Shown piece after piece: positions 1,391 to 17,781 of a DNA stretch of 21,431 bases. Where the stretch lies: IMG/VR virus record IMGVR_UViG_2563366923_000001, positions 1-21,431 of that record, one strand, 5' to 3'. The translations under genes were made by a program, and so were the position numbers. The notes below the pieces were generated by a model, which did no database searches, was not told the origin of the DNA, and was given only the letters and a program-made list of their open reading frames with translations. This DNA comes from a virus (Duplodnaviria > Heunggongvirae > Uroviricota > Caudoviricetes). Numbering within the stretch: the first letter of the stretch is position 1; each line of letters begins with the position of its first letter.

Positions 1391-1446
1391 AAATTCTTAG
1401 AAACCGATCACATACAGCTGCATTTATTAAGGTTATCATCCGTTTC
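1391..1446 (+). promoter_or_regulatory. cyaR promoter region with CRP-like site (TTAGA-N6-TCACA centred about -42) and TATCAT -10 about 7-12 nt upstream of the sRNA 5' end
   Basis: TCACA at 1408-1412 with an imperfect left half-site 1397-1401; -10-like TTATCAT at 1432-1438; CyaR is known to be CRP-activated. Confidence 0.45.
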
Positions 1447-1533
1447 GCTGAAAAACATAACCCATAAAATGCTAGCTGTACCAGGAACCACCTCCTTAGC
1501 CTGTGTAATCTCCCTTACACGGGCTTATTTTTT
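1447..1533 (+). ncRNA. cyaR: CyaR (RyeE) Hfq-dependent small RNA
   Basis: Sequence GCTGAAAAACATAACCCATAAAATGCTAGCTGTACCAGGAACCACCTCCTTAGCCTGTGTAATCTCCCTTACACGGGCTTATTTTTT recognised as CyaR; 3' stem-loop (CCTGTGTAA/TTACACGGG) plus U-tract; lies between yegQ and the P2 remnant as in E. coli. Confidence 0.7.
1507..1533. repeat. P2 att core copy (attR, ogr-proximal): AATCTCCCTTACACGGGCTTATTTTTT
   Basis: 27-bp sequence is the reverse complement of the P2 core AAAAAATAAGCCCGTGTAAGGGAGATT as I recall it; an identical copy lies at 20928-20954. Confidence 0.8.
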
Positions 1534-3577: not shown

Positions 3578-3806
3578 TTTTCGTCACCTCCTTAACCGAA
3601 TCCGGGAAGCCACCGAGCGACCACTCCATTGACAGCGCATCGTCATCAAGGCCGAGGTCTACCGGTGCGCTGCCGTTCATCCCCGCACCGCGATAGTTTT
3701 CGAGCTTACGGGTCAGTTTTGGTAGCGTGACGGACTTCGCGACGCCCTGATAGCTGTAGCCGTTCAGAAAGACGTTCATTAACTTGAGTTTGCGCGGCAT
3801 TGCCAT
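3510..3806 (-). pseudogene. FII: Truncated tail tube gene FII (N-terminal about 72 codons fused to out-of-frame sequence upstream of U)
   Basis: ORF begins MAMPRKLKLMNVFLNGYSYQG... (tail tube N-terminus) but is only 98 aa against 172 aa in P2; its last about 27 codons read through the U start region in another frame; genes E, E' and T that lie between FII and U in P2 are absent. Confidence 0.7.
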
Positions 3807-3818
3807 CGGTCAGGCTCC

Positions 3819-5009
3819 TTAATTGCTGTTAACCGAGGTGACCAGATTTGCCAGGTATTTATCGGTAATACGCTGGCGCAGGGTCAGGTTTTCGAGAGGA
3901 GGCACCGGGGTATAGTCGTAGTCGATATACAGTTTTCCGGCCTTGAGGGTTTCCGCATCGTTGGATTCTTCGCTGAACCAGCAGGTCGCATCCACGATAT
4001 AGCCGTTTGTTTTCAGTTCACGGAATTTGGCATTGATGCCGTCAACGATGTCGCGAATCAGCGTTGCGGTGATGGGCTTGTCCACCGCCCACATGTGCGC
4101 CTCAGCCATCGTGTCGGCCAGCACCTGCGCGGTGCGGGTGTAGTTTTCAAAGAGGAACAGCGGGTCATCAGAGCAGGTACGGTTACCCCAGAAGCGGAAA
4201 CCGTCGCGGCGAATCAGCGTTGTGACGCCAGACTCGTTCAACAGGTCAGCATCGGTGCCGGACTCCTGCAAATCCCAGAATACAGATGCGCTGATGCCGG
4301 TAACACCGTTTACCCCGACGTTGGACAGCGTTTTATGCCAGCCCTGCTCCTGGTCGATTTTAGCGCGCAGACCCAGCGCACGGGCGGTGGCATACGCGGT
4401 GGCGGTGGTACTGGTGACCGTATCCCATGCGAGGAAATCCGGCCAGATGACCATCAGCTCACGCTGGCTGAAATTCTGGCGGTAGGCTTTCACCTCGGAA
4501 ATGGTCTTACAGCCCCATGCGCTGATATATCCGAAAGCGCGCAGCTTCTGACAGACGGATGCTAGTGCAACAGCCACCTCTTTGGTATCCAGTCCCGGCA
4601 CACCGAGAATACGCGGTTTAACACCGGTTACCGACTCCGCCGCCAGCAGGGCTTTCAGTCCGGTGTACTGACCGTTTTCGTCGGTGGTGCCGATGATATT
4701 GGAAACGGTCTGCGCAAGTTTCGTTTCCTCGTCGTCGCCGGTGCCGTCTTCCACACGCACGACAACGGTGACCGGTTTTGACTGGTCGGCGATGGCCTGC
4801 AACGATGCCGCCAGCGTGCCTTTTTTACCGGCCTTTGCAATTGCGCTCTGCACATTGGTAATCAACACCGGTTTATTGAGGGGGAAGGTTTCCGCATCCG
4901 CATCGCTGGCCGTGCAGACCATGCCGACAATGGCAGTGGATACGGTGGAAATGACGCGGGTGCCGTCGTTAATCTCCAGCACCTGCACGCCATGATGATA
5001 GTCACTCAT
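3819..5009 (-). CDS. FI: P2 gpFI-like tail sheath protein (396 aa)
   Basis: Track ORF 3819..5162 has an internal start MSDYHHGVQVLEINDG... at 5009-5007, preceded by a GGAG RBS; the 396 aa from that Met matches the P2 FI length. Confidence 0.85.
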   Translation of the reverse strand: MSDYHHGVQVLEINDGTRVISTVSTAIVGMVCTASDADAETFPLNKPVLITNVQSAIAKAGKKGTLAASLQAIADQSKPVTVVVRVEDGTGDDEETKLAQTVSNIIGTTDENGQYTGLKALLAAESVTGVKPRILGVPGLDTKEVAVALASVCQKLRAFGYISAWGCKTISEVKAYRQNFSQRELMVIWPDFLAWDTVTSTTATAYATARALGLRAKIDQEQGWHKTLSNVGVNGVTGISASVFWDLQESGTDADLLNESGVTTLIRRDGFRFWGNRTCSDDPLFLFENYTRTAQVLADTMAEAHMWAVDKPITATLIRDIVDGINAKFRELKTNGYIVDATCWFSEESNDAETLKAGKLYIDYDYTPVPPLENLTLRQRITDKYLANLVTSVNSN

Positions 5010-5100
5010 CCGTTTAACTCCGTGGTTAATGGGTGCAACTATTTTCTGTTGTGCAGAGCATGAGACGCTATTTGACCTGGCTGGCCAGTGGATGAAACAA

Positions 5101-5133
5101 CAGATAAAGAAAAGGCGGGCAATCAGCCCGCCA
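5101..5133 (-). terminator. Putative rho-independent terminator on the minus strand (GGCGGGC-TGATT-GCCCGCC followed by TTTTCTTTATCTG)
   Basis: 7-bp GC-rich inverted repeat at 5113-5119/5125-5131 with a T-rich tract downstream on the minus strand; sits between the Z/fun-position cargo and the FI promoter region. Confidence 0.45.
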
Positions 5134-5378
5134 GCCTTGATTTGCACTCTCTCAATTTCCAACTGACAAAATACGTAGCCAAAACGCTATCAAATCTGAC
5201 AGCCTGCTTTGAGCGAGAAACAGACATGGATGGCATACAGTGAAAGTAGCCGCACAATGAGCATCACTGCAATTCTGAATTCAAGCTCTAATACTATTGA
5301 GACCGTATCATACAGTCACTCGCAAAAATTACTTTACCTGAGTGAAAAAATTGATTCCAAGCAAAATGAAAACTTGTA

Positions 5379-5406
5379 ATTCATTATTACATGCATAATA
5401 ATGAAT
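5379..5406. promoter_or_regulatory. AT-rich 11-bp perfect inverted repeat (ATTCATTATTA-CATGCA-TAATAATGAAT) about 100 bp upstream of the OLD-like gene; candidate operator
   Basis: Read directly from the sequence; a TATATAAA -10-like element follows at 5420-5427. Confidence 0.3.
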
Positions 5407-5508
5407 AAAAACTTGAGCTATATAAACCAAAGTTGTTCCGAATAGTCCGTTGAGACATCACTCGAATTATAGGAATACAAGGTTTTATTTTTATAAGGAA
5501 TCGCTCCC

Positions 5509-7773
5509 ATGGGTTTGCAAAGCATAAGAATAAAAAACTTACTATCATTTAATGATGTAATAATAAATTCCCTAGAGGATGTAAATTGCATTGTAGGGAT
5601 GAATAATGTTGGCAAATCCAATCTTATGAAAATATTGAAATATTTTTACGACAAACTTGACGACATAAAAGTAATACCTCCTGATTTTCATTCTAGTTAT
5701 ACTCCTTCAGGGTCAATAACATTGACTTATGATGTAACAAGAATAAAGAGAATTGTAATGAACCCTAATAACAATGGTCGCTTTCACAAGCATATTTATA
5801 ACACTTTATTTAAGCCACAATCATTCATCCGAAAGCCGCAGAAATTCTGTCTTCCTTTCATATCTCCTTTGGGTTTCCAAAGAAAAAGCACTTATAGCAT
5901 TACACTCACAATTTCTAAAGATGACTCCGTAACTTGGTCAATTAGCACACCAAATGCCCGGCATCTAATTAAAACTCTATTTCCTTTTTTCCATATTGAA
6001 ACCAGACACATTGACTTATACGACTGGAATAGCATATGGAAAATGCTCAGCAGTATAAATTCCTTTAATTTCTCTGAAATAAAAAAAGAAGAACTCCTTG
6101 AGTTTTTGAATGAGAAAATATCAACTAAGCGGGGTAGTTACAAGAAGTATATAGAAAGAGTTGAAAATGTAATCCATACTAAACCTTACACCTATAAAGA
6201 TAAAGTCGTTAATTATCTAAAAATAGTTTTAGATGGCGATATTTTCATAAATAAAGGTGAAGAACTACATGTTCAGTCGGATGGCACGAACTCTCACAAA
6301 TATCTTGAAATTATACTTAGCCTATTAATTTCATTAACAAGAACAGAATTTATCAATCCAATTATATATATTGATGAACCTGAAATTGGGCTACATCCAA
6401 AACTTAGCGAGAACTTTATTGAGAACATAAGCCTGACATATAAAAAGTATGATAAAACCCATGAGGAAATTGAGCCTGGAAAATATTCAACACCATATCC
6501 AACTCTTATATTTAGCACTCATTCTCCGAGTTTACTAAAACTCACGCTAAAATCTTTCTTACATAAACAGCAGGTTTTGCATTTTTCAAAAGAACGTGAC
6601 AACTCGACCAAAATTTCAAAATTAAACTCTAAATATAATGACATTAGATTTATAAATATGCTTAGCGATAATGAGGCCCGTCTATTCTTTAGTGAATACA
6701 TTCTATTTGTAGAGGGCGCCACAGAAGTTGAATTGTTTAGAAATTATAATCTGCAAAAGCTGTTTCCAGTACTTAAAAGGTTAGATGTGTATGATTGCGA
6801 TGAAGTAATGTTGAAAAATATAAACCCCAGCTACTCAAATGCAGCCATCCCATTTCTAGTAGTAAAGGATATTGATCAGATTGCCGTTGTTGACTTCGAA
6901 CATGAACAATTTAAATTTAATTCGAAAGGGAAATCAATTATTAATAAAATCATTAAGAGAGATAAACTACACTATTTTTCGACATACCAAAAACCTTTTC
7001 TTAACGCAGCAAAATTTCTTTTAAGCCAAGATGAAAGGAAAGTAACATTCAGTGAAAATGGCCTAAAATTCAGACACTTCAGTATAGGCAGAGTTATAAG
7101 CGCAGTTAATTTTTTATCCTCTAAAGATAATGTTTATTATACTTCTACAACGATAGAAGGCTCATTGATCAATGAATTCTCTTTAGAGACATTCTCTTTA
7201 TGGATCATTGACATAGTAATGAGAAGCTTTAATGTAAATAATAAAAACCCTGTAAAAATGATTAATGCTCTGCTGCAAAAATACGATATTAAAACCCAAT
7301 CAAAACAACTTTTTCCCAAAATACTTTCAAAATGTGAAACAAATCATGACCTACCATTGCGACACATGAGATTATTGAAAATCATTAAAATTAGATATGC
7401 TAAAGAAATAATTGATGAGTTTAAAAAAACCATCCCCGACGTAAAAGACCAAGTTGCTATCTTGCGCCTTATTTTTAGTGGCAAAACAGAAACTCTTGTA
7501 AGTATAGAAATGCATTATAAAATTGATCAAAAACCGATACGGCAAGATATATTGGATTATATCAAAGCATTAAAGTCAGAAAATTTCTCTTTTATGAGTT
7601 CTTACATAGGAAAGACTTCTGGATGGGTTACAAGCTTCATTGATTTTAGCCTTAATCATTATTCAGCCCTAGATAAAGAAAATGTCGAAAAAAAATTCCG
7701 CTTGGCTTTTCCTGAAATTTCGCATATCATCGATCATGCTTCTTCTTCGATAGAAGCTGGAGGGCTCAAATGA
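5509..7773 (+). CDS. OLD-family nuclease-like protein: N-terminal ABC-type ATPase, central TOPRIM domain, about 300-aa unassigned C-terminal extension (754 aa)
   Basis: Walker A GMNNVGKSN near the N-terminus; Walker B/D-loop IIYIDEPEIGLHP; H-loop FSTHSP; TOPRIM glutamate motif LFVEGATEVELF and DxD-like VVKDIDQIA; AAGGAA RBS before the ATG; strongly AT-rich relative to the prophage backbone. Confidence 0.75.
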   Translation: MGLQSIRIKNLLSFNDVIINSLEDVNCIVGMNNVGKSNLMKILKYFYDKLDDIKVIPPDFHSSYTPSGSITLTYDVTRIKRIVMNPNNNGRFHKHIYNTLFKPQSFIRKPQKFCLPFISPLGFQRKSTYSITLTISKDDSVTWSISTPNARHLIKTLFPFFHIETRHIDLYDWNSIWKMLSSINSFNFSEIKKEELLEFLNEKISTKRGSYKKYIERVENVIHTKPYTYKDKVVNYLKIVLDGDIFINKGEELHVQSDGTNSHKYLEIILSLLISLTRTEFINPIIYIDEPEIGLHPKLSENFIENISLTYKKYDKTHEEIEPGKYSTPYPTLIFSTHSPSLLKLTLKSFLHKQQVLHFSKERDNSTKISKLNSKYNDIRFINMLSDNEARLFFSEYILFVEGATEVELFRNYNLQKLFPVLKRLDVYDCDEVMLKNINPSYSNAAIPFLVVKDIDQIAVVDFEHEQFKFNSKGKSIINKIIKRDKLHYFSTYQKPFLNAAKFLLSQDERKVTFSENGLKFRHFSIGRVISAVNFLSSKDNVYYTSTTIEGSLINEFSLETFSLWIIDIVMRSFNVNNKNPVKMINALLQKYDIKTQSKQLFPKILSKCETNHDLPLRHMRLLKIIKIRYAKEIIDEFKKTIPDVKDQVAILRLIFSGKTETLVSIEMHYKIDQKPIRQDILDYIKALKSENFSFMSSYIGKTSGWVTSFIDFSLNHYSALDKENVEKKFRLAFPEISHIIDHASSSIEAGGLK

Positions 7774-7893
7774 GCTGACGCATGCCGTCACTTGCTCCAG
7801 CAAACACTAGCTCGGATTGTCTTGCGTCCGCTAAGCCGCTTTAAGCCTCACGGGGTGTAAAGATGTTATTGGTATCGAAGAGGAAGCTTTTAC

Positions 7894-8991
7894 ATGAAAC
7901 ATAAAATTAATAAAATTAACAATGATTTTTATAAAAATTTTTATCTAAGAGAAACATTCTCCGATGATATTATTATGACTCACGGAGTCCCTGAGATTTC
8001 CAATGACGATTATAAAAGCATTTCATTAAAGAATAGATTATGTTTCACTATAAGAAAAAGCTCCCCGCATAAAAAAATACAAGAAAGACTTATAAAAAAT
8101 TTCCTAGTAAAAGTTCCTCTTAGCTCACCTGCAATTGCCTATCGTAAAAAATTAAACTATTTGAATTTTCTAGAACCTCATATCCATGGTGAGAACTTTT
8201 GTCGAATTGACTTATGTAATTTTTTTCATAACATAAACTATAACTTTGCAAGGGAGTGTTTCAAATCCTACTTTGAAGATGAATATCTGGTAAATAAAAA
8301 AATCAAAGTTATTGATGCATTTTTAAATAGTTTATCTATTGAGATTGTAGTCAACAATAAAAAGAAAAAAATATTTCCAATGGGATTCGCCACATCACCT
8401 TTCATATCCAATATAATTTTCAGAAAGTTAGATATTTTAATTAAAAGTTTGTGTGACAAAAGAAGCATCATTTACACTCGTTATGCTGATGATATGCTTT
8501 TTTCGAGCTCCGGGAAAGACAAACTTCTTGGAAGTGAACATTTTGACAACGAGATATCAACTATTGTCAATACGGCAGGACTGTCCCTCAACAAACATAA
8601 AAAAATATTTAAGAAAGGCATAATCTCACTAAACGGCTATGTAATAGAAAATAAAAATGGAGGGGGAGAGAGAGGGAGTATAAGAATATCTAATGGAAAA
8701 ATGTATTTAATACGGAAAGCACTAGATAAATTTAAAAAGGGATATTCTAAAGAGCATATTTGCAAAAAAGTATTTTCTGTTAAATCACCAACTGTCAAGT
8801 ATAATAACAATGCAGATCAGTTTGTAACGGATTTTTATAATTCACAATTCTCTAATAAGTTAGCTGGTTATCGTTCATATTTAATATCATTAGTAAAATT
8901 TAATGATAAATTCAGATGTTTTCACGAAAACGAAATCACCAAATACTCAGTGATTATTGATGAAATTTCTAATGCACTGCTAAAACCCTAG
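7894..8991 (+). CDS. Reverse transcriptase, retron/Abi-like (365 aa)
   Basis: RT motifs in order: RIDLCNFFHNI (motif 2 region), FPMGFATSPFISNIIF (motif 4, compare retron PQGxxxSPxLSN), YTRYADD (catalytic YxDD at 8482-8493), LSLNKHKK and ISLNGYVI (retron-like motif 6/7 region, but no canonical VTG); GAGGAAG RBS; AT-rich; no maturase or endonuclease domain. Confidence 0.8.
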   Translation: MKHKINKINNDFYKNFYLRETFSDDIIMTHGVPEISNDDYKSISLKNRLCFTIRKSSPHKKIQERLIKNFLVKVPLSSPAIAYRKKLNYLNFLEPHIHGENFCRIDLCNFFHNINYNFARECFKSYFEDEYLVNKKIKVIDAFLNSLSIEIVVNNKKKKIFPMGFATSPFISNIIFRKLDILIKSLCDKRSIIYTRYADDMLFSSSGKDKLLGSEHFDNEISTIVNTAGLSLNKHKKIFKKGIISLNGYVIENKNGGGERGSIRISNGKMYLIRKALDKFKKGYSKEHICKKVFSVKSPTVKYNNNADQFVTDFYNSQFSNKLAGYRSYLISLVKFNDKFRCFHENEITKYSVIIDEISNALLKP

Positions 8992-13060: not shown

Positions 13061-14051
13061 TCAACCGGGGACGCGCCAGCGCCGCCGAACGCGTGGAAAT
13101 CGACGTCAGTCATAACGCCCTTGCCGGTGGGCTTCTCTGTGCGGACGGCCAGTGGCGGCAGATTGTCACCATTGAGGACGCCCTGAAAGGTGGCTGCACG
13201 CTGTTCGACATTGAGCAGCTTAAACGCGAAAACAGCGCCGACGATTTTAAAAACCTGTTCATGTGTGAATTTGTTGACGACAAGGCGTCGGTATTTCCCA
13301 GCAGGATTTCAGCCGCTTTGTGCTGGATTTTCTGGTGTTCGGCAATGCGTTTCTGGAAAAGCGTTACAGCACCACCGGTAAGGTCATCAGACTGGAAACC
13401 TCACCGGCAAAATATACCCGCCGTGGCGTGGAAGAGGATGTTTACTGGTGGGTGCCGTCCTTCAACGAGCCGACACCTTTCGCGCCCGGCTCCGTGTTTC
13501 ACCTGCTGGAGCCGGATATTAATCAGGAGCTGTACGGCCTGCCGGAATATCTCAGCGCCCTTAACTCTGCCTGGCTGAATGAGTCGGCCACTCTGTTCCG
13601 CCGCAAGTATTACGAAAACGGCGCACATGCCGGATACATCATGTACGTCACGGATGCCGTGCAGGATCGCAACGATATCGAAATGCTTCGCGAAAACATG
13701 GTGAAGTCGAAAGGCCGCAACAACTTTAAAAACCTGTTTCTCTATGCCCCGCAGGGAAAAGCCGACGGCATTAAAATTATCCCGCTCAGTGAAGTGGCGA
13801 CGAAGGACGATTTTTTTAATATCAAAAAAGCCAGTGCCGCAGACCTGCTGGACGCGCACCGCATCCCCTTTCAGTTGATGGGCGGCAAGCCGGAGAACGT
13901 CGGGTCGCTGGGCGATATTGAGAAAGTAGCAAAGGTCTTTGTCCGCAATGAGCTTATCCCGTTACAGGACAGGATCCGCGAGATAAACGGCTGGCTCGGT
14001 CAGGAGGTCATCCGATTTAAAAACTACTCACTGGACACTGACAACGGCTGA
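13040..14051 (+). pseudogene. Q: Portal gene Q remnant: no start codon, reading frame switches near 13280-13300
   Basis: C-terminal 243 codons (13320..14051, frame 3) are an intact portal-like sequence; the N-terminal part is in frame 1 (track ORF 13006..13578); frame 3 has a stop at 13275-13277; frame 1 upstream of about 13040 is antisense to N; position next to cos fits P2 Q. Confidence 0.62.
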
Positions 14052-14220: not shown

Positions 14221-14239
14221 GTGCTTTCCCCGCCTCGCC
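14221..14239. other. P2 cos cohesive-end sequence (reverse complement of GGCGAGGCGGGGAAAGCAC)
   Basis: GTGCTTTCCCCGCCTCGCC at 14221-14239 matches the 19-nt P2 cohesive end as I recall it, and sits where cos lies in a P2 prophage (between Q and the tin/old region). Confidence 0.72.
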
Positions 14240-14331
14240 CGCCCGCTTCATGGGGCGGTTTTAATGCAGTTACATAGATACTATGGATCCGCACCAGTCC
14301 TGACCGCACGCAGCCTGAACGGACATCCCCG

Positions 14332-14365
14332 ACGCATGCAAAAACATTCACTTGTTGCATGCAAC
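14332..14365. promoter_or_regulatory. Tandem GCATGCAA palindromic motifs (CGCATGCAAA at 14333-14342; perfect palindrome TTGCATGCAA at 14355-14364) upstream of the 313-aa cargo gene; candidate operator/promoter
   Basis: Read directly from the sequence; the two sites are 23 bp apart; a related ATGCATGCAA occurs at 16698-16707 upstream of the divergent cargo operon. Confidence 0.35.
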
Positions 14366-14477
14366 GGCTTATTTAATGACAAATCAACTTAAATTTACAA
14401 AATCCACAGGTATGGATACTTTGCGAACATGATAGGCTTACGAGAATTATCGTGCCTGTTTTTGAACGGAGAAAGTT

Positions 14478-15419
14478 ATGCAAGGTGAAGTTGACGAACA
14501 GCAACCAAATGAGATTATTTCGGAGTTTGGATACTATCCAGTAGAAGTTAACATTGAGACTGAACAATTTTCTTTGCGTACTTTACCCGGTCTTATTGAG
14601 AAAGTGGAACGTATTAACAATGATAAAAACGTTGTTAATGGTTGGATATACCCTGGGAATCGAAAGGTATATAACCTTAATGGTGACACATGCACAATGC
14701 CTTATAGTTACCGAGTATTCGGCATGCCCAAAACGCACACACTAAAATTAAAAAACACATCCTCGTTAGAAACTCTCAACTTTGTTGTGTGGTGCCTCTC
14801 TTTTTTCAAGGGTATAAGATTGACAACCACTGACGCTGGTTTTCTTGATGCAACCACTATCAAGCCCACTAAGTTAACCGACTTTATTCTCGTTGGATGC
14901 TCTGAAAAAGAAGTAATAGAGCTAGCACTTAACTATATAAAAGACAAACAAAAAGATGATCGCTCCATTAAAAGAATAGCTGCGGTGATACACTCCCTAT
15001 TCCTGTCACATAACCCACTATACCTTTCCTTTGAGAAATTCCAGTATCTTTATATGGCTCTTGATTGCTGTTTTGCTATAGCATGGGATGAAAGGGATAA
15101 AGTCATTAAAGAGAAAAAACCATCTCATCAAAATAGAGTATATTGGACGTGCGAAAATTACGGTGTAAAAATCCCGTCATGGGCAACAGATGAATGTAAT
15201 GTTTCAGTTATACGCAATGATAATTTTCATGAAGCCATTTTTAATGGGCAACCGCTTGGTTTCTCTAGTATCAATGATTGTCAATATGGTAGCGATATAT
15301 TGCTACAAATGCAGGCTCTGGTATGTCGTCTACTAGCGGCAATACTCTCTGTAAATGATCGTAAATATATCGCATCTACAATCAGCTCGATAGAGTACCA
15401 TTCATTAAAATTAACTTAA
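14478..15419 (+). CDS. Hypothetical protein (313 aa), AT-rich cargo at the tin/old position; no recognisable motifs
   Basis: Long ORF with a GGAG RBS 8 nt before the ATG; composition contrasts with the prophage backbone; first gene after cos. Confidence 0.6.
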   Translation: MQGEVDEQQPNEIISEFGYYPVEVNIETEQFSLRTLPGLIEKVERINNDKNVVNGWIYPGNRKVYNLNGDTCTMPYSYRVFGMPKTHTLKLKNTSSLETLNFVVWCLSFFKGIRLTTTDAGFLDATTIKPTKLTDFILVGCSEKEVIELALNYIKDKQKDDRSIKRIAAVIHSLFLSHNPLYLSFEKFQYLYMALDCCFAIAWDERDKVIKEKKPSHQNRVYWTCENYGVKIPSWATDECNVSVIRNDNFHEAIFNGQPLGFSSINDCQYGSDILLQMQALVCRLLAAILSVNDRKYIASTISSIEYHSLKLT

Positions 15420-15491
15420 TGCTAACGCCTCACTTCGCTCGTTGTTCAACCCCGCCAGCCTGAAAACAAGTTTCACGACTGGCGGCGTTCT

Positions 15492-15644
15492 CTATCGTCT
15501 GCGTGGTGGTGGCGCAACTCTGGACTGACCGATATAGTTAAACCGCCCGTAATTATCCCGGACTATTTCGGCACACCCGACCAGCTCGTCAGGCGTCAGA
15601 TTTTCGTTGACCATAATCTGCTGTAAACGGTGAACAATGGCCAT
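15492..15644 (-). CDS. Possible small ORF (50 aa, MAIVHRLQQIMVNENLTPDELVGCAEIVRDNYGRF...), function unknown
   Basis: ATG-to-stop ORF below the track size cut-off, with an in-frame upstream stop and a weak AGG-type RBS; backbone-like GC content; could be a remnant of a phage gene. Confidence 0.2.
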   Translation of the reverse strand: MAIVHRLQQIMVNENLTPDELVGCAEIVRDNYGRFNYIGQSRVAPPPRRR

Positions 15645-15738
15645 CAACCTGACACTTTTGGTGTTATATGTGGTATCTCACATGAGATTACTGACCAAGG
15701 TGCATCTTGGTTGACTCATTTCATATCCATCCACACCA

Positions 15739-16419
15739 CTACATCTTTATTGCATATTTATTAAAAGACGCCCAGTTCAATAAAAAAACATTATTCATAT
15801 ACCATTCAATATGATTTTTATTTTTAGATTGACTGTCAAGTAGCACACAAACATCAACCTGTTTATCAATCAATTTTGCAATATAAACCACAAACTCAAC
15901 ACTCGAATATCTCTTTGTGCCTAGCAAATATAATATTTCATCTGACAAATAATTAGACTCATGTGAAAAGACATTATCATTTAACAAAATCAACCCGCCA
16001 ATCGAGTCATTTAAATCCAAAACATCCTTTGTTGCATTTATTTGCTTATTAGCTTCCTTAACTATCTTTGTTTTAATATTTTCATAAGCAAAGTTCATTA
16101 TATCATTTCTAAATCGCTTTGAGTCTGGGTGTCTTTTTATCAACTCTTCTAAATGAATAGCACCATGCCAGTTTTTTGCAAGCCAACTATCAGTTTTAAC
16201 CAACTCATTCAGTTTATCATTGACATTCTTGACCCTGTCAGAAAAAAGACTTTTCATCTCCAAAATTATCTTTTTATTATCAATAAGATAATCTGCCATC
16301 TTGCGATTCTGACCATCCTTCATCCGGAACTTATGATGAATATCATCAATAGAAATCCCTTTTTCATGCTCAACAATGAATCTCTTAACATTGTTTTCTA
16401 ATTCGCTGTATTGTTTCAT
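15739..16419 (-). CDS. Hypothetical protein (226 aa), AT-rich cargo; no recognisable motifs
   Basis: ORF with a strong GGGGGAAAG RBS; 27 nt downstream of the DUF2158 gene on the same strand (operon-like). Confidence 0.6.
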   Translation of the reverse strand: MKQYSELENNVKRFIVEHEKGISIDDIHHKFRMKDGQNRKMADYLIDNKKIILEMKSLFSDRVKNVNDKLNELVKTDSWLAKNWHGAIHLEELIKRHPDSKRFRNDIMNFAYENIKTKIVKEANKQINATKDVLDLNDSIGGLILLNDNVFSHESNYLSDEILYLLGTKRYSSVEFVVYIAKLIDKQVDVCVLLDSQSKNKNHIEWYMNNVFLLNWASFNKYAIKM

Positions 16420-16446
16420 ACTTTCCCCCGTGAATTTTATTATGAT

Positions 16447-16638
16447 TCACTTACGTGGACGACACAGCATACCACTTTTACTCTCTGCTATTTCCAGTAA
16501 ATCAATGGAGAATGACTCCTCGTGCAAAACTCCTTCTTTATCATGCCAAATACATTTCGCATGAGTTTCAGTAGAGTCAGATACAGTCATTTTAAATCCA
16601 CCGCTTTTCAAACAAACAACATCTGCAGGCTTTAACAT
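16447..16638 (-). CDS. DUF2158 / YodC-like small protein (63 aa)
   Basis: Internal start MLKPADVVCLKSGGFKMTVSD... with GGAG 7 nt upstream; the DVVxLKSGGxxMTV signature resembles YodC-family small proteins; the track ORF 16447..16722 over-extends the N-terminus. Confidence 0.55.
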   Translation of the reverse strand: MLKPADVVCLKSGGFKMTVSDSTETHAKCIWHDKEGVLHEESFSIDLLEIAESKSGMLCRPRK

Positions 16639-16764
16639 TTTTGTCTCCAACATTTTTAAGTAATGCATTATAACATAATGATATTGACGTAGATTTAATG
16701 CATGCAACCATATAAAAAACAATCAATTACAGTCAAAACTACTTATACTGTATAGATGAGATCC

Positions 16765-17781
16765 TTACTCAAATTGATGCCAGAATCCCGACCACTCATC
16801 AGCGACCGGATACGTGAATTTTTTCCCGTCATAATTTACGGTCGCGCCACGCGCCAGCGCCTCAAGCTCCCATCGCTGCGGCCTGATACCGTTCTGAGCA
16901 AGGTCAACGCGGATACGGGTGATTTGCAATCGTTCAGACCGGGTCAGTCTGGCCGATGGCGCTATTTCATGTGGTTTTAACGGGCTTCCGTTTCTTTGCT
17001 GACGATTTGGTGTTTTCAGGCCGTGTTTTAATGCACCCCTGAGCGTCCTCACGACCTCCGGGTCATTCCATTCGATAACACCGTCATCAACCAGATTTAG
17101 CACTGCTGCGGCGTGTTCAGAAGGTGTGGGAGCCGGTAACGAAGTATCACCACCGGTGAGCTTTCCACAGTTATTGACAGGACTCCGAGGCGCGGCGATG
17201 CCGCTTTTTAACGTCAAAGGCTCAACGACCGGCACTTTCGGCACAATGCGCCAGTCCGTCGTTCTGGTGATATGAATATGACGCGCGCCGAGATGCGGCG
17301 CGTAAATGCCGACCACTCTCTCGACCTCTTCCTCGTACTCGTTAACGTCATCCGACGGGCTACGGGCAACCCTGACAGTCTGACAATCGCGCGGAACATT
17401 TGCCCCACCCTGCGCGCTGATATACAACGCAAAATCACCACTGTCTGCGGCAGCGCGTGCAGCCTCGACGCGTTCGTCAAACTCATCAGCAATGCTGACG
17501 CCGCGAGGCAATTTGCGTAGTTCACGGTAAGCCCCCATTGTCGGCAGACCAACCGTTTTAAATTGCGGAATGCGCCACGTTGACGCCCATGCGGTAACAG
17601 CAGCAGCTGTGTCTTTCAGCGGCCTGCCGGTATCATTATCGAGCTGACCATCCAGTGCATAGCCGTCGATGTTTTTTGAGATGTATTTCGCGATATATCC
17701 CGCAGCACCGCCCCGGTTAAGATGTTTTGTTGTTCCTGAATAAAATCTACGTTGTCCGGCATTATCAGCTCCTTTTATCGT
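16765..17781 (-). pseudogene. A: Replication initiator gene A remnant (C-terminal about 335 codons, with the YIAKYISK active-site region, but no N-terminal about 430 codons and no start codon)
   Basis: Frame is open from 17781 to the stop at 16765 and reads ...KHLNRGGAAGYIAKYISKNIDGYALDGQLDNDTGRPLKDTAAAVTAWASTWRIPQFKTVGLPTMGAYRELRKL...; the rolling-circle Rep Y-x-x-K-Y motif is present; no in-frame start before Met 17538; P2 A is 761 aa. Confidence 0.68.

Follow-up and report, generated by a model that had tools for sequence, protein, structure and literature searches.

The DNA studied here, referred to as the window, is the whole stretch of 21,431 nucleotides of IMG/VR virus record IMGVR_UViG_2563366923_000001, an Escherichia coli P2-like prophage inserted between trhP and yegR. 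The subject of this work is ORF313, a candidate immunity gene encoding a protein of 313 amino acids. It is the first gene 3´ of a P2-type cos 19-mer and is located between the genes for the portal (Q) and the replication endonuclease (A), both of which are present as fragments. This portal-to-gpA locus is where P2 carries old and tin (PMC9122126), and it is an established defence hotspot (PMC9122126; PMC9519451, Vassallo 2022 'hotspot #1'). ORF313 is cargo of this P2 hotspot between gpQ/cos and gpA. The cos assignment is sound, since the 19-mer GTGCTTTCCCCGCCTCGCC is the reverse complement of the string GGCGAGGCGGGGAAAGCAC present in P4 cos-region clones (Rousset Table S2A). The gene has a GGAG ribosome binding site and is AT-rich, with a GC content of 37.2% (32.5% at third codon positions) against 53% in the portal fragment and 55% in the gpA fragment. 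Its place directly after cos at the tin/old locus, its ribosome binding site and a composition differing from the backbone had been stated in an original prediction made from this DNA, and all three are confirmed.

The same prediction had called the gene an orphan, which does not hold. The exact protein is found on at least 1000 Enterobacteriaceae contigs, each time labelled 'hypothetical protein'. Of 5426 complete E. coli genomes, 99 have the gene, in every case as a chromosomal copy, with allele groups of at least 99%, 80-90% and 60-80% identity. Escherichia phage vB_EcoM-720R8 encodes an identical protein, and Yersinia phages vB_YpM_46 and VB-YPM-4 encode proteins with 99.7% identity. An 81% identical protein was deposited already in 2006 as 'ORF313' of P2-EC67 (AM157369), beside 'ORF226' and 'ORF73', and PHROG 5937 (function not known) matches ORF313 at E = 3e-199. 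A word-indexed search revealed 260 clusters of relatives, and an exhaustive profile search of 1.84 billion representatives identified 803 at E up to 1e-3, of which 260 were found at E up to 1e-30. These 803 cluster representatives span Gamma-, Beta- and Alphaproteobacteria and their phages; the best 150 profile matches are almost all 280-325 amino acids long and are covered over their full length. The ratios of nonsynonymous to synonymous substitution rates (dN/dS) between four alleles are 0.15-0.33. Because of the 803 family representatives and these dN/dS values, ORF313 is a real gene under purifying selection and not a chance open reading frame. The family has thus been seen before (P2-EC67 ORF313, PHROG 5937, and 'system 11' of the hotspot survey by Rousset et al.), but without any experiment, domain or motif on record in the sources searched.

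A confident AlphaFold2 model of ORF313, built on 40 homologues (mean pLDDT 84.6, pTM 0.85), divides the protein into two parts, an N-terminal alpha/beta domain and a C-terminal domain that is predicted to be all-helical. In an alignment of 58 representatives with identities down to 23%, only five columns are invariant, namely H87, G112, Y192, R246 and H251, and conservation of at least 90% was found for G18, W56, Y58, T86, F102, R114, D135, E186, D196, H217, R220 and N247. The HEPN superfamily is defined by an Rx4-6H motif in which the R is immediately followed by a polar residue (N, D or H) (PMC3710099, Anantharaman et al. 2013). The stretch R246-N247-x3-H251(-E252) fits this signature, including the polar residue, so that the earlier statement that no catalytic motif can be recognised in the protein has to be revised. 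The motif is also retained in a Bradyrhizobium-type sister clade. In the model it is located at the start of helix 242-256, and such a position at the beginning of a core helix in an all-helical core of about 100-120 amino acids is what is expected for a HEPN structure, making the C-terminal half HEPN-like as far as the prediction goes. Taken together, we consider it highly probable that ORF313 belongs to the HEPN superfamily.

Comparison with the P2-EC67 locus revealed that the allele in the window is a mosaic. The two loci are 98-100% identical over 14267-14865 and 15565-16800, and identity drops to 58-88% within a patch of about 650 nucleotides. The break of this patch, at about amino acid 145, coincides with the predicted domain boundary, and dS between the two alleles is 0.011 for the N-terminal half versus 1.11 for the C-terminal half. 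Since the divergence within the protein is confined to the C-terminal half, the presumed effector half was exchanged by recombination and the N-terminal half was kept. A donor of the diverged half was not found among the sampled alleles, the best of which is 77% identical. In the full-length enterobacterial alleles (P0002-P0015) the helical half is generally more diverged, with 59-77% identity versus 75-91% for the N-terminal half.

The placement of the gene is well conserved in P2-like phages. Among 40 viral contigs encoding a relative, the same strand bears a P2-type portal gene that ends at most 2.5 kb upstream in 37, gpA is located downstream likewise in 37, and a cos-like 19-mer is present about 256 nucleotides before the start codon in 35. 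This placement is kept even where the portal is merely about 77% and gpA about 40% identical to those of the window. The neighbourhood comparison that had been proposed with the original prediction thus showed a nearly constant upstream portal and variable partners: other E. coli alleles are found at the same place together with a hypothetical protein and ImmA/IrrE, or with DinI-like genes in a 186-like phage, and another E. coli allele is located at the tRNA-proximal edge of a different prophage remnant. A repeat array, tandem or inverted repeats or an Rfam family near ORF313 were searched for and not found. ORF313 is a self-contained single-gene cassette without a conserved partner.

In the window, ORF313 is followed by ORF226 and a gene for a DUF2158 protein, which together form a separate two-gene cassette. 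It might be possible that ORF313 is one component of a three-gene system with these two genes, since P2-EC67 has the same trio (ORF313, ORF226, ORF73), as do phage 720R8 and a set of 26 E. coli genomes, and all three genes are AT-rich. However, ORF226 and the DUF2158 gene are found in only seven of the 40 viral loci, other alleles having the ImmA/IrrE or DinI-type neighbours, and no ORF226 homologue is located near the distant family members. The genes are convergent, and a backbone gene remnant lies between them. In addition, Rousset et al. list ORF226 and DUF2158 as 'system 63' (67 occurrences), distinct from system 11 (Table S5B; PMC9122126). A common three-gene system is therefore very improbable. 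Rst_3HP, a set of three hypothetical proteins from the P2 hotspot that protects against P1, was also considered and rejected, as peptides of ORF313 and ORF226 are absent from Table S2A/B.

HEPN domains are common toxins of toxin-antitoxin modules, for example in HepT/MNT, RnlA/RnlB and AbiF with its RNA antitoxin (PMC3710099; bioRxiv 10.64898/2026.02.22.705581). ORF313 might likewise act as toxin in an addiction module by which the prophage is stabilised, a small protein or an RNA being the unrecognised antitoxin, and the small convergent open reading frame just downstream, which accompanies the 84% allele, could be a candidate for such an antitoxin. The segment containing it is GC-richer and about 310 nucleotides long. 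It is about four times more widespread than ORF313 (380 versus 99 E. coli genomes), and in other P2-like phages it is a small backbone gene after gpA/DUF3850 that adjoins unrelated cargo, so that it is not a partner of ORF313; the copy in the window is a remnant or copy of that gene. The small open reading frame and ORF226 were both ruled out as partners by their distribution. In some genomes the segment carries the RefSeq label 'meiotically up-regulated 80 protein', which looks spurious. Furthermore, neither an MNT-type, RnlB-type or other conserved neighbour was found in more than 10 contexts, nor were tandem repeats or Rfam matches, and the two domains are always fused at a constant length (290-320 amino acids), which fits self-regulation. 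We therefore assign only a low probability to an addiction module.

Outside the enterobacterial P2-like phages the gene is found in very different surroundings. In 17 of the 18 species-representative genomes of other genera (including Pseudomonas, Xanthomonas, Acinetobacter, Stenotrophomonas, Comamonas, Thauera, Achromobacter, Rheinheimera and Marinobacterium), the vicinity of the gene lacks a P2 portal, gpA and cos, and the GC content of the gene does not exceed that of its flanks. Two of the contexts adjoin known defence-type genes. In P. aeruginosa, the gene is part of an island with DUF932, ParB_N and a Gabija-like pair of an OLD-TOPRIM ATPase and a UvrD helicase, and in Acinetobacter seifertii it directly adjoins a gene for a DUF4238 protein, a domain that has been validated as single-gene P2-hotspot defence (Rousset; PMC9122126). 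In Stenotrophomonas it is Tn7-like cargo, in P. viridiflava it is located in an integrase/resolvase island, in Buttiauxella in a methylase/SNase/DUF1173 island, and in Verticiella beside a giant DUF4011 helicase-nuclease, HipA and a faint match to a reverse transcriptase. In Acinetobacter tianfuensis it is a moron-type insertion (7001-7942 of locus L085) in reverse orientation among the structural genes of a P22-like prophage, where the portal gene and a gp49_66-type gene have it on their capsid side; this vehicle is unrelated to P2. Family members are also present on six plasmids, and the sister clade is found in a Rep_1/FtsK integrative element. Mobile elements of many kinds carry the family in cargo positions. 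A side observation concerns plasmid pBsp2S1b of Bradyrhizobium sp. 2S1 (L010), which encodes a distant member at 5998-6867 (+); read from a GTG it has 289 amino acids, and the RefSeq version (230 amino acids) is 59 amino acids too short. A 453-amino-acid hypothetical protein with an Rx4H-like LRHKTVH and no Pfam match is encoded 5´ of it (4585-5946, +), and the pair may represent tandem HEPN-like genes in a region rich in insertion sequences.

The prophage in the window is defective. An intact relative in E. coli UPEC85 spans 35.4 kb from trhP to yegR. Measured against it, the prophage in the window has six internal deletions, with junctions near 3598, 11034, 12523, 13037, 13299 and 17729 and junction overlaps of 2-10 bp. 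Most of the tape measure gene and of gpA is lost through them, as are part of the tail fibre gene and parts of N, O, P and Q, together with the V-to-N block, which covers lysis, head completion and the small terminase; the same deletion pattern was found in none of the complete E. coli genomes of the collection. The cargo genes are intact at both P2 hotspots of this prophage. The retention of an intact ORF313 in a prophage stripped of most structural genes counts for a role in defence.

An RNase of the HEPN type might also serve the phage itself. It could degrade host or competitor RNA during lytic growth, or it could act in counter-defence by cleaving cyclic-oligonucleotide immune signals, and in both cases the lysogen would stay unprotected. 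Some HEPN domains indeed deplete cyclic oligoadenylate signals (bioRxiv 10.64898/2026.02.22.705581, introduction), ORF313 is carried by viable phages (vB_EcoM-720R8 and Yersinia vB_YpM_46), and its position is fixed at 256 nucleotides from cos across quite different phage backbones. Such a benefit is difficult to reconcile with an intact gene in a prophage that is no longer able to make virions, and with its orientation convergent to the early operon, as a separate transcription unit. Moreover, the non-phage vehicles outside enterobacteria (Tn7-like and integrative elements, plasmids and islands, some of them next to Gabija-like or DUF4238 genes) show a distribution that would be expected for defence cargo and not for counter-defence genes of a phage. 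Thus, we regard a phage-benefiting or counter-defence RNase as quite unlikely.

Considering locus, distribution and predicted architecture, we lean towards the interpretation that ORF313 is a prophage-encoded HEPN RNase, self-inhibited and activated by infection, that provides anti-phage immunity by abortive infection or exclusion. The protein would be made from the prophage and held inactive by its own N-terminal domain until a signal of infection by another phage turns it on. The metal-independent HEPN site R246/H251, which dimerisation would probably complete, would then cut RNA of the cell or of the phage, with tRNA anticodon loops or mRNA as the most plausible substrates, and translation would be halted before the invader finishes its cycle. 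What we infer in this model is the RNase activity, the N-terminal autoinhibition, both trigger and RNA target, and the phenotype of defence. The original prediction of a single-gene abortive-infection or exclusion candidate gains from the self-contained cassette, the toxin-type HEPN signature and the cargo positions in mobile elements, although its statements 'orphan' and 'no motif' fell away and defence itself stays at the level of a proposal. It had also named two observations that would speak against it, and these were looked for: no homology to a housekeeping or structural phage protein was found, and the gene is not consistently located outside mobile-element hotspots.

Several results weigh against this interpretation. 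In the AlphaFold2 model, pLDDT is only 57-77 around and after the motif. Scans of Pfam (including its HEPN models) and PADLOC 2.0 with first 40 and then 58 divergent members, each used singly, gave no match. In an hhalign comparison with a RiboL-PSP-like HEPN family, which itself reaches Pfam HEPN_RiboL-PSP only below the curated cut-off, the RNxxxHE motifs were in register, but the match was not significant (P = 0.018, probability about 3%). Foldseek searches of PDB and BFVD returned nothing below E = 0.2. In Aeromonas, the neighbours of the gene are normal chromosomal ones, and no marker of mobility or defence is visible there. System 11 (Rousset et al. 2022, Table S5B; PMC9122126), a single gene with 218 occurrences and no domain annotation, was catalogued and is absent from the systems tested in that study, and of the eight further P2-hotspot systems that were tested, only three protected on their phage panel (PMC9122126).

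The remaining homology searches painted a similar picture. No Pfam, NCBIfam or PADLOC model matches ORF313, and PHROGs gave the function-less family alone. A profile comparison with single HEPN sequences again placed the motifs in register, and again it was not significant; a single-sequence search of PDB chains gave noise. The N-terminal domain has no match in PDB, BFVD, Pfam or PADLOC. Two apparent links were followed and rejected. The family profile, over residues 243-282, weakly matched the first 44 residues of E. coli ribonucleotide reductase R2, NrdB (whole-sequence E about 0.02, domain i-Evalue about 0.4), but this match was judged a chance one because neither the R nor the H is present in NrdB at this place, and the Bradyrhizobium sister clade, considered as a bridge to a curated family, has no Pfam match. 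The invariant peptides of the family are absent from Rousset Table S2, which covers the validated and the other tested systems, and the 'Putative HEPN' tested there (pFR103) encodes a different protein. No study of the gene turned up in full-text literature searches by its name or by HEPN combined with P2-like prophages, with subscription journals thinly covered so that a published characterisation is possible; the loci tested in a 2026 survey of P2/P4 hotspots were those of P4 alone.

Possibly, ORF313 is not an active RNase and its helical half is a HEPN-like or bundle-like binding domain, the protein having another role, for instance in regulation, in RNA or ligand binding, or as an N-terminal enzyme around His87. 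The absence of a significant profile link to a curated HEPN family and the negative Foldseek result would fit with this, as would the existence of non-catalytic HEPN domains (PMC3710099), and the invariant His87 together with T86 and R114 hints at a second functional site. HEPN domains that lose catalysis, however, typically lose the Rx4-6H motif (PMC3710099), whereas here the R and the H are among the five invariant columns and the N is conserved at 90% or more. In addition, UniProt automatically names one member (A0A3A8EY04) 'Apea-like HEPN domain-containing protein', a name that was not reproduced with the Pfam copy used. A non-catalytic protein is therefore unlikely, though we would give it some weight. 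The remote-homology search and structure prediction suggested with the original prediction thus yielded a HEPN signature and, in the AlphaFold2 model, a HEPN-like helical half, but no significant profile or Foldseek match.

Returning to the immune RNase that we favour, ORF313 could represent a large and so far unnamed family of immune RNases that consist of one protein each, and it would be the first of them to be recognised. Its sensor would be a new alpha/beta domain carrying an invariant His, its halves could be exchanged through recombination at the domain boundary, as seen between the window allele and P2-EC67, and its trigger and RNA target would both be new. We put this forward tentatively and would sooner expect some part of it to fail. 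In E. coli, the homologous system 11 ranks eleventh by abundance among the cargo types of the cos-proximal P2 hotspot (218 loci in the Rousset survey), and the family is still labelled 'hypothetical' almost everywhere and missed by Pfam, NCBIfam and PADLOC. If ORF313 is a true defence RNase, it would add a compact single-gene protein of 313 amino acids with an uncharacterised sensor domain to the repertoire of HEPN immunity, and it would close a gap in the defence annotation of many Enterobacteriaceae, Pseudomonas, Acinetobacter, Aeromonas and Xanthomonas genomes. A HEPN protein at the P2 hotspot is what specialists would expect, so that ORF313 is a useful candidate and no surprise. The invariant residues H87, R246 and H251 offer a simple mutational design.

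Table 1. Coordinates of ORF313, its predicted parts and the surrounding features in the window.
Feature	Position	Strand	Remarks
CyaR/RyeE, host small RNA gene	1445-1530	+	Rfam RF00112, 100.7 bits
AAA_15/AAA_21 protein, second island	5509-7773	+	754 amino acids
Reverse transcriptase, second island	7894-8991	+	365 amino acids
Portal gene fragment	13320-14051		Pfam Phage_portal; upstream flank
P2-type cos 19-mer GTGCTTTCCCCGCCTCGCC	14221-14239	.	Read directly
GC hairpin adjoining cos, then T run	14239-14258		Part of the leader region
Leader from cos to the start codon	14240-14477	+	GC hairpin and T run, weak promoter-like site, GGAG ribosome binding site
Promoter-like site	14376-14403		Weak, 9/12 match
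Ribosome binding site GGAG	14468-14471		6 nucleotides 5´ of the ATG
ORF313	14478-15419	+	ATG at 14478, stop ending at 15419, 313 amino acids; PHROG 5937; homologue of Rousset 'system 11'
Predicted N-terminal alpha/beta domain, amino acids 13-140	14514-14897	+	AlphaFold2; beta-rich, pLDDT mostly 83-97
His87 codon	14736-14738		Invariant column
Predicted C-terminal all-helical, HEPN-like domain, amino acids 141-313	14898-15416	+	AlphaFold2; residues about 143-300 helical
Recombination patch versus P2-EC67 allele	14900-15560	+	Predicted HEPN half and about 140 nucleotides downstream diverged
Predicted catalytic motif R246-N247-D-N-F-H251-E252	15213-15233	+	Rx4H, polar residue after R; conservation and AlphaFold2
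GC-richer downstream segment	15425-15735		About 310 nucleotides
Small open reading frame in this segment	15492-15647	-	Convergent to ORF313
ORF226	15739-16419	-	226 amino acids, 30% GC, PHROG 20483, no Pfam or PADLOC match
DUF2158 protein	16447-16722	-	91 amino acids
gpA C-terminal fragment	16765-17538		Downstream flank

The leader between cos and ORF313 contains the features listed in Table 1. The number of promoter-like sites found, 14, is barely above the expectation from shuffled sequences (8.9 +/- 2.9), and the match upstream of ORF313 is weak; thus, a promoter is not established. Two further observations were made in the window. The other P2 hotspot, which lies between the genes for tail sheath and tail fibre, is occupied by a second AT-rich island (about 30% GC). 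Its AAA_15/AAA_21 protein is annotated in a matching genome as 'retron Eco8 family effector endonuclease' and its reverse transcriptase as 'reverse transcriptase domain-containing protein'; Rfam gave no match at the gathering threshold in this island, where a dedicated search for an msr/msd RNA was not made. CyaR/RyeE, a host small RNA gene, adjoins the attachment site, with trhP on one side and the prophage's ogr end on the other.

With regard to systems described before, the sequence of system 11 is of the same family as ORF313 and falls into the allele group sharing 69% identity with the protein of the window; the entries for system 11, PHROG 5937 and P2-EC67 ORF313 record no HEPN motif, family size or two-domain architecture. 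With old and tin of P2, ORF313 shares the position between cos/portal and gpA and the AT-rich accessory DNA, and these too are exclusion genes expressed from the prophage. P2 Old is described as an ABC-ATPase with a TOPRIM nuclease (10.64898/2026.07.10.737580), whereas ORF313 has no ATPase or TOPRIM match and is homologous to neither gene. The HEPN toxins of toxin-antitoxin and abortive infection systems (HepT/MntA, RnlA/LsoA, AbiV, the C-terminal domain of AbiA, AbiF) require an antitoxin protein or RNA or another fused enzymatic domain. ORF313 has no such partner here, an adjacent antitoxin gene (MNT, RnlB) or antitoxin RNA repeats being found in none of more than 10 contexts, and its N-terminal domain has no counterpart in these toxins.

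The closest parallels are found in two single-protein HEPN systems, which are also the best-studied ones of this kind. ApeA (Gao_Ape; HEPN_Apea, PF18739) is a single-protein HEPN nuclease, gated by a small-molecule ligand, that cuts tRNA anticodon loops (bioRxiv 10.64898/2026.01.26.701840). Like ORF313 it is a single polypeptide without a partner gene, it has a C-terminal HEPN domain with Rx4H and a non-catalytic N-terminal part that is a possible sensor, and it is hotspot cargo of a phage or satellite (HEPN_Apea entries in P4 loci). ApeA differs in being about 580 amino acids long and mostly helical, with three domains (an N-terminal one, Mid, and a split HEPN with insertions), whereas ORF313 is predicted to have two domains, with a beta-rich N-terminal one. 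The Pfam PF18739 and PADLOC ApeA models matched no family member, including P0086 with its UniProt name 'Apea-like', at E up to 10 (Pfam) or 1 (PADLOC). DARNA (PD-T7-3) is a single-protein HEPN tRNA anticodon nuclease that is switched on by single-stranded DNA which the phage SSB presents (bioRxiv 10.64898/2026.02.22.705581). It likewise consists of one gene that combines a HEPN effector with a non-catalytic sensing domain, and it follows the logic of abortive infection that we propose for ORF313. In DARNA (456 amino acids), however, the HEPN domain (R117x4H122) is N-terminal and is followed by a Pds5-like helical domain of 300 amino acids that senses single-stranded DNA, while in ORF313 the predicted HEPN domain is C-terminal and the other domain is of the alpha/beta type; a PADLOC scan detected no sequence similarity between DARNA and the ORF313 family. 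Because size, domain order and folds differ and no model matches, ORF313 belongs to neither the ApeA nor the DARNA family. As precedents for immunity by one HEPN protein, however, ApeA and DARNA support the model of ORF313 as a self-contained immune RNase.

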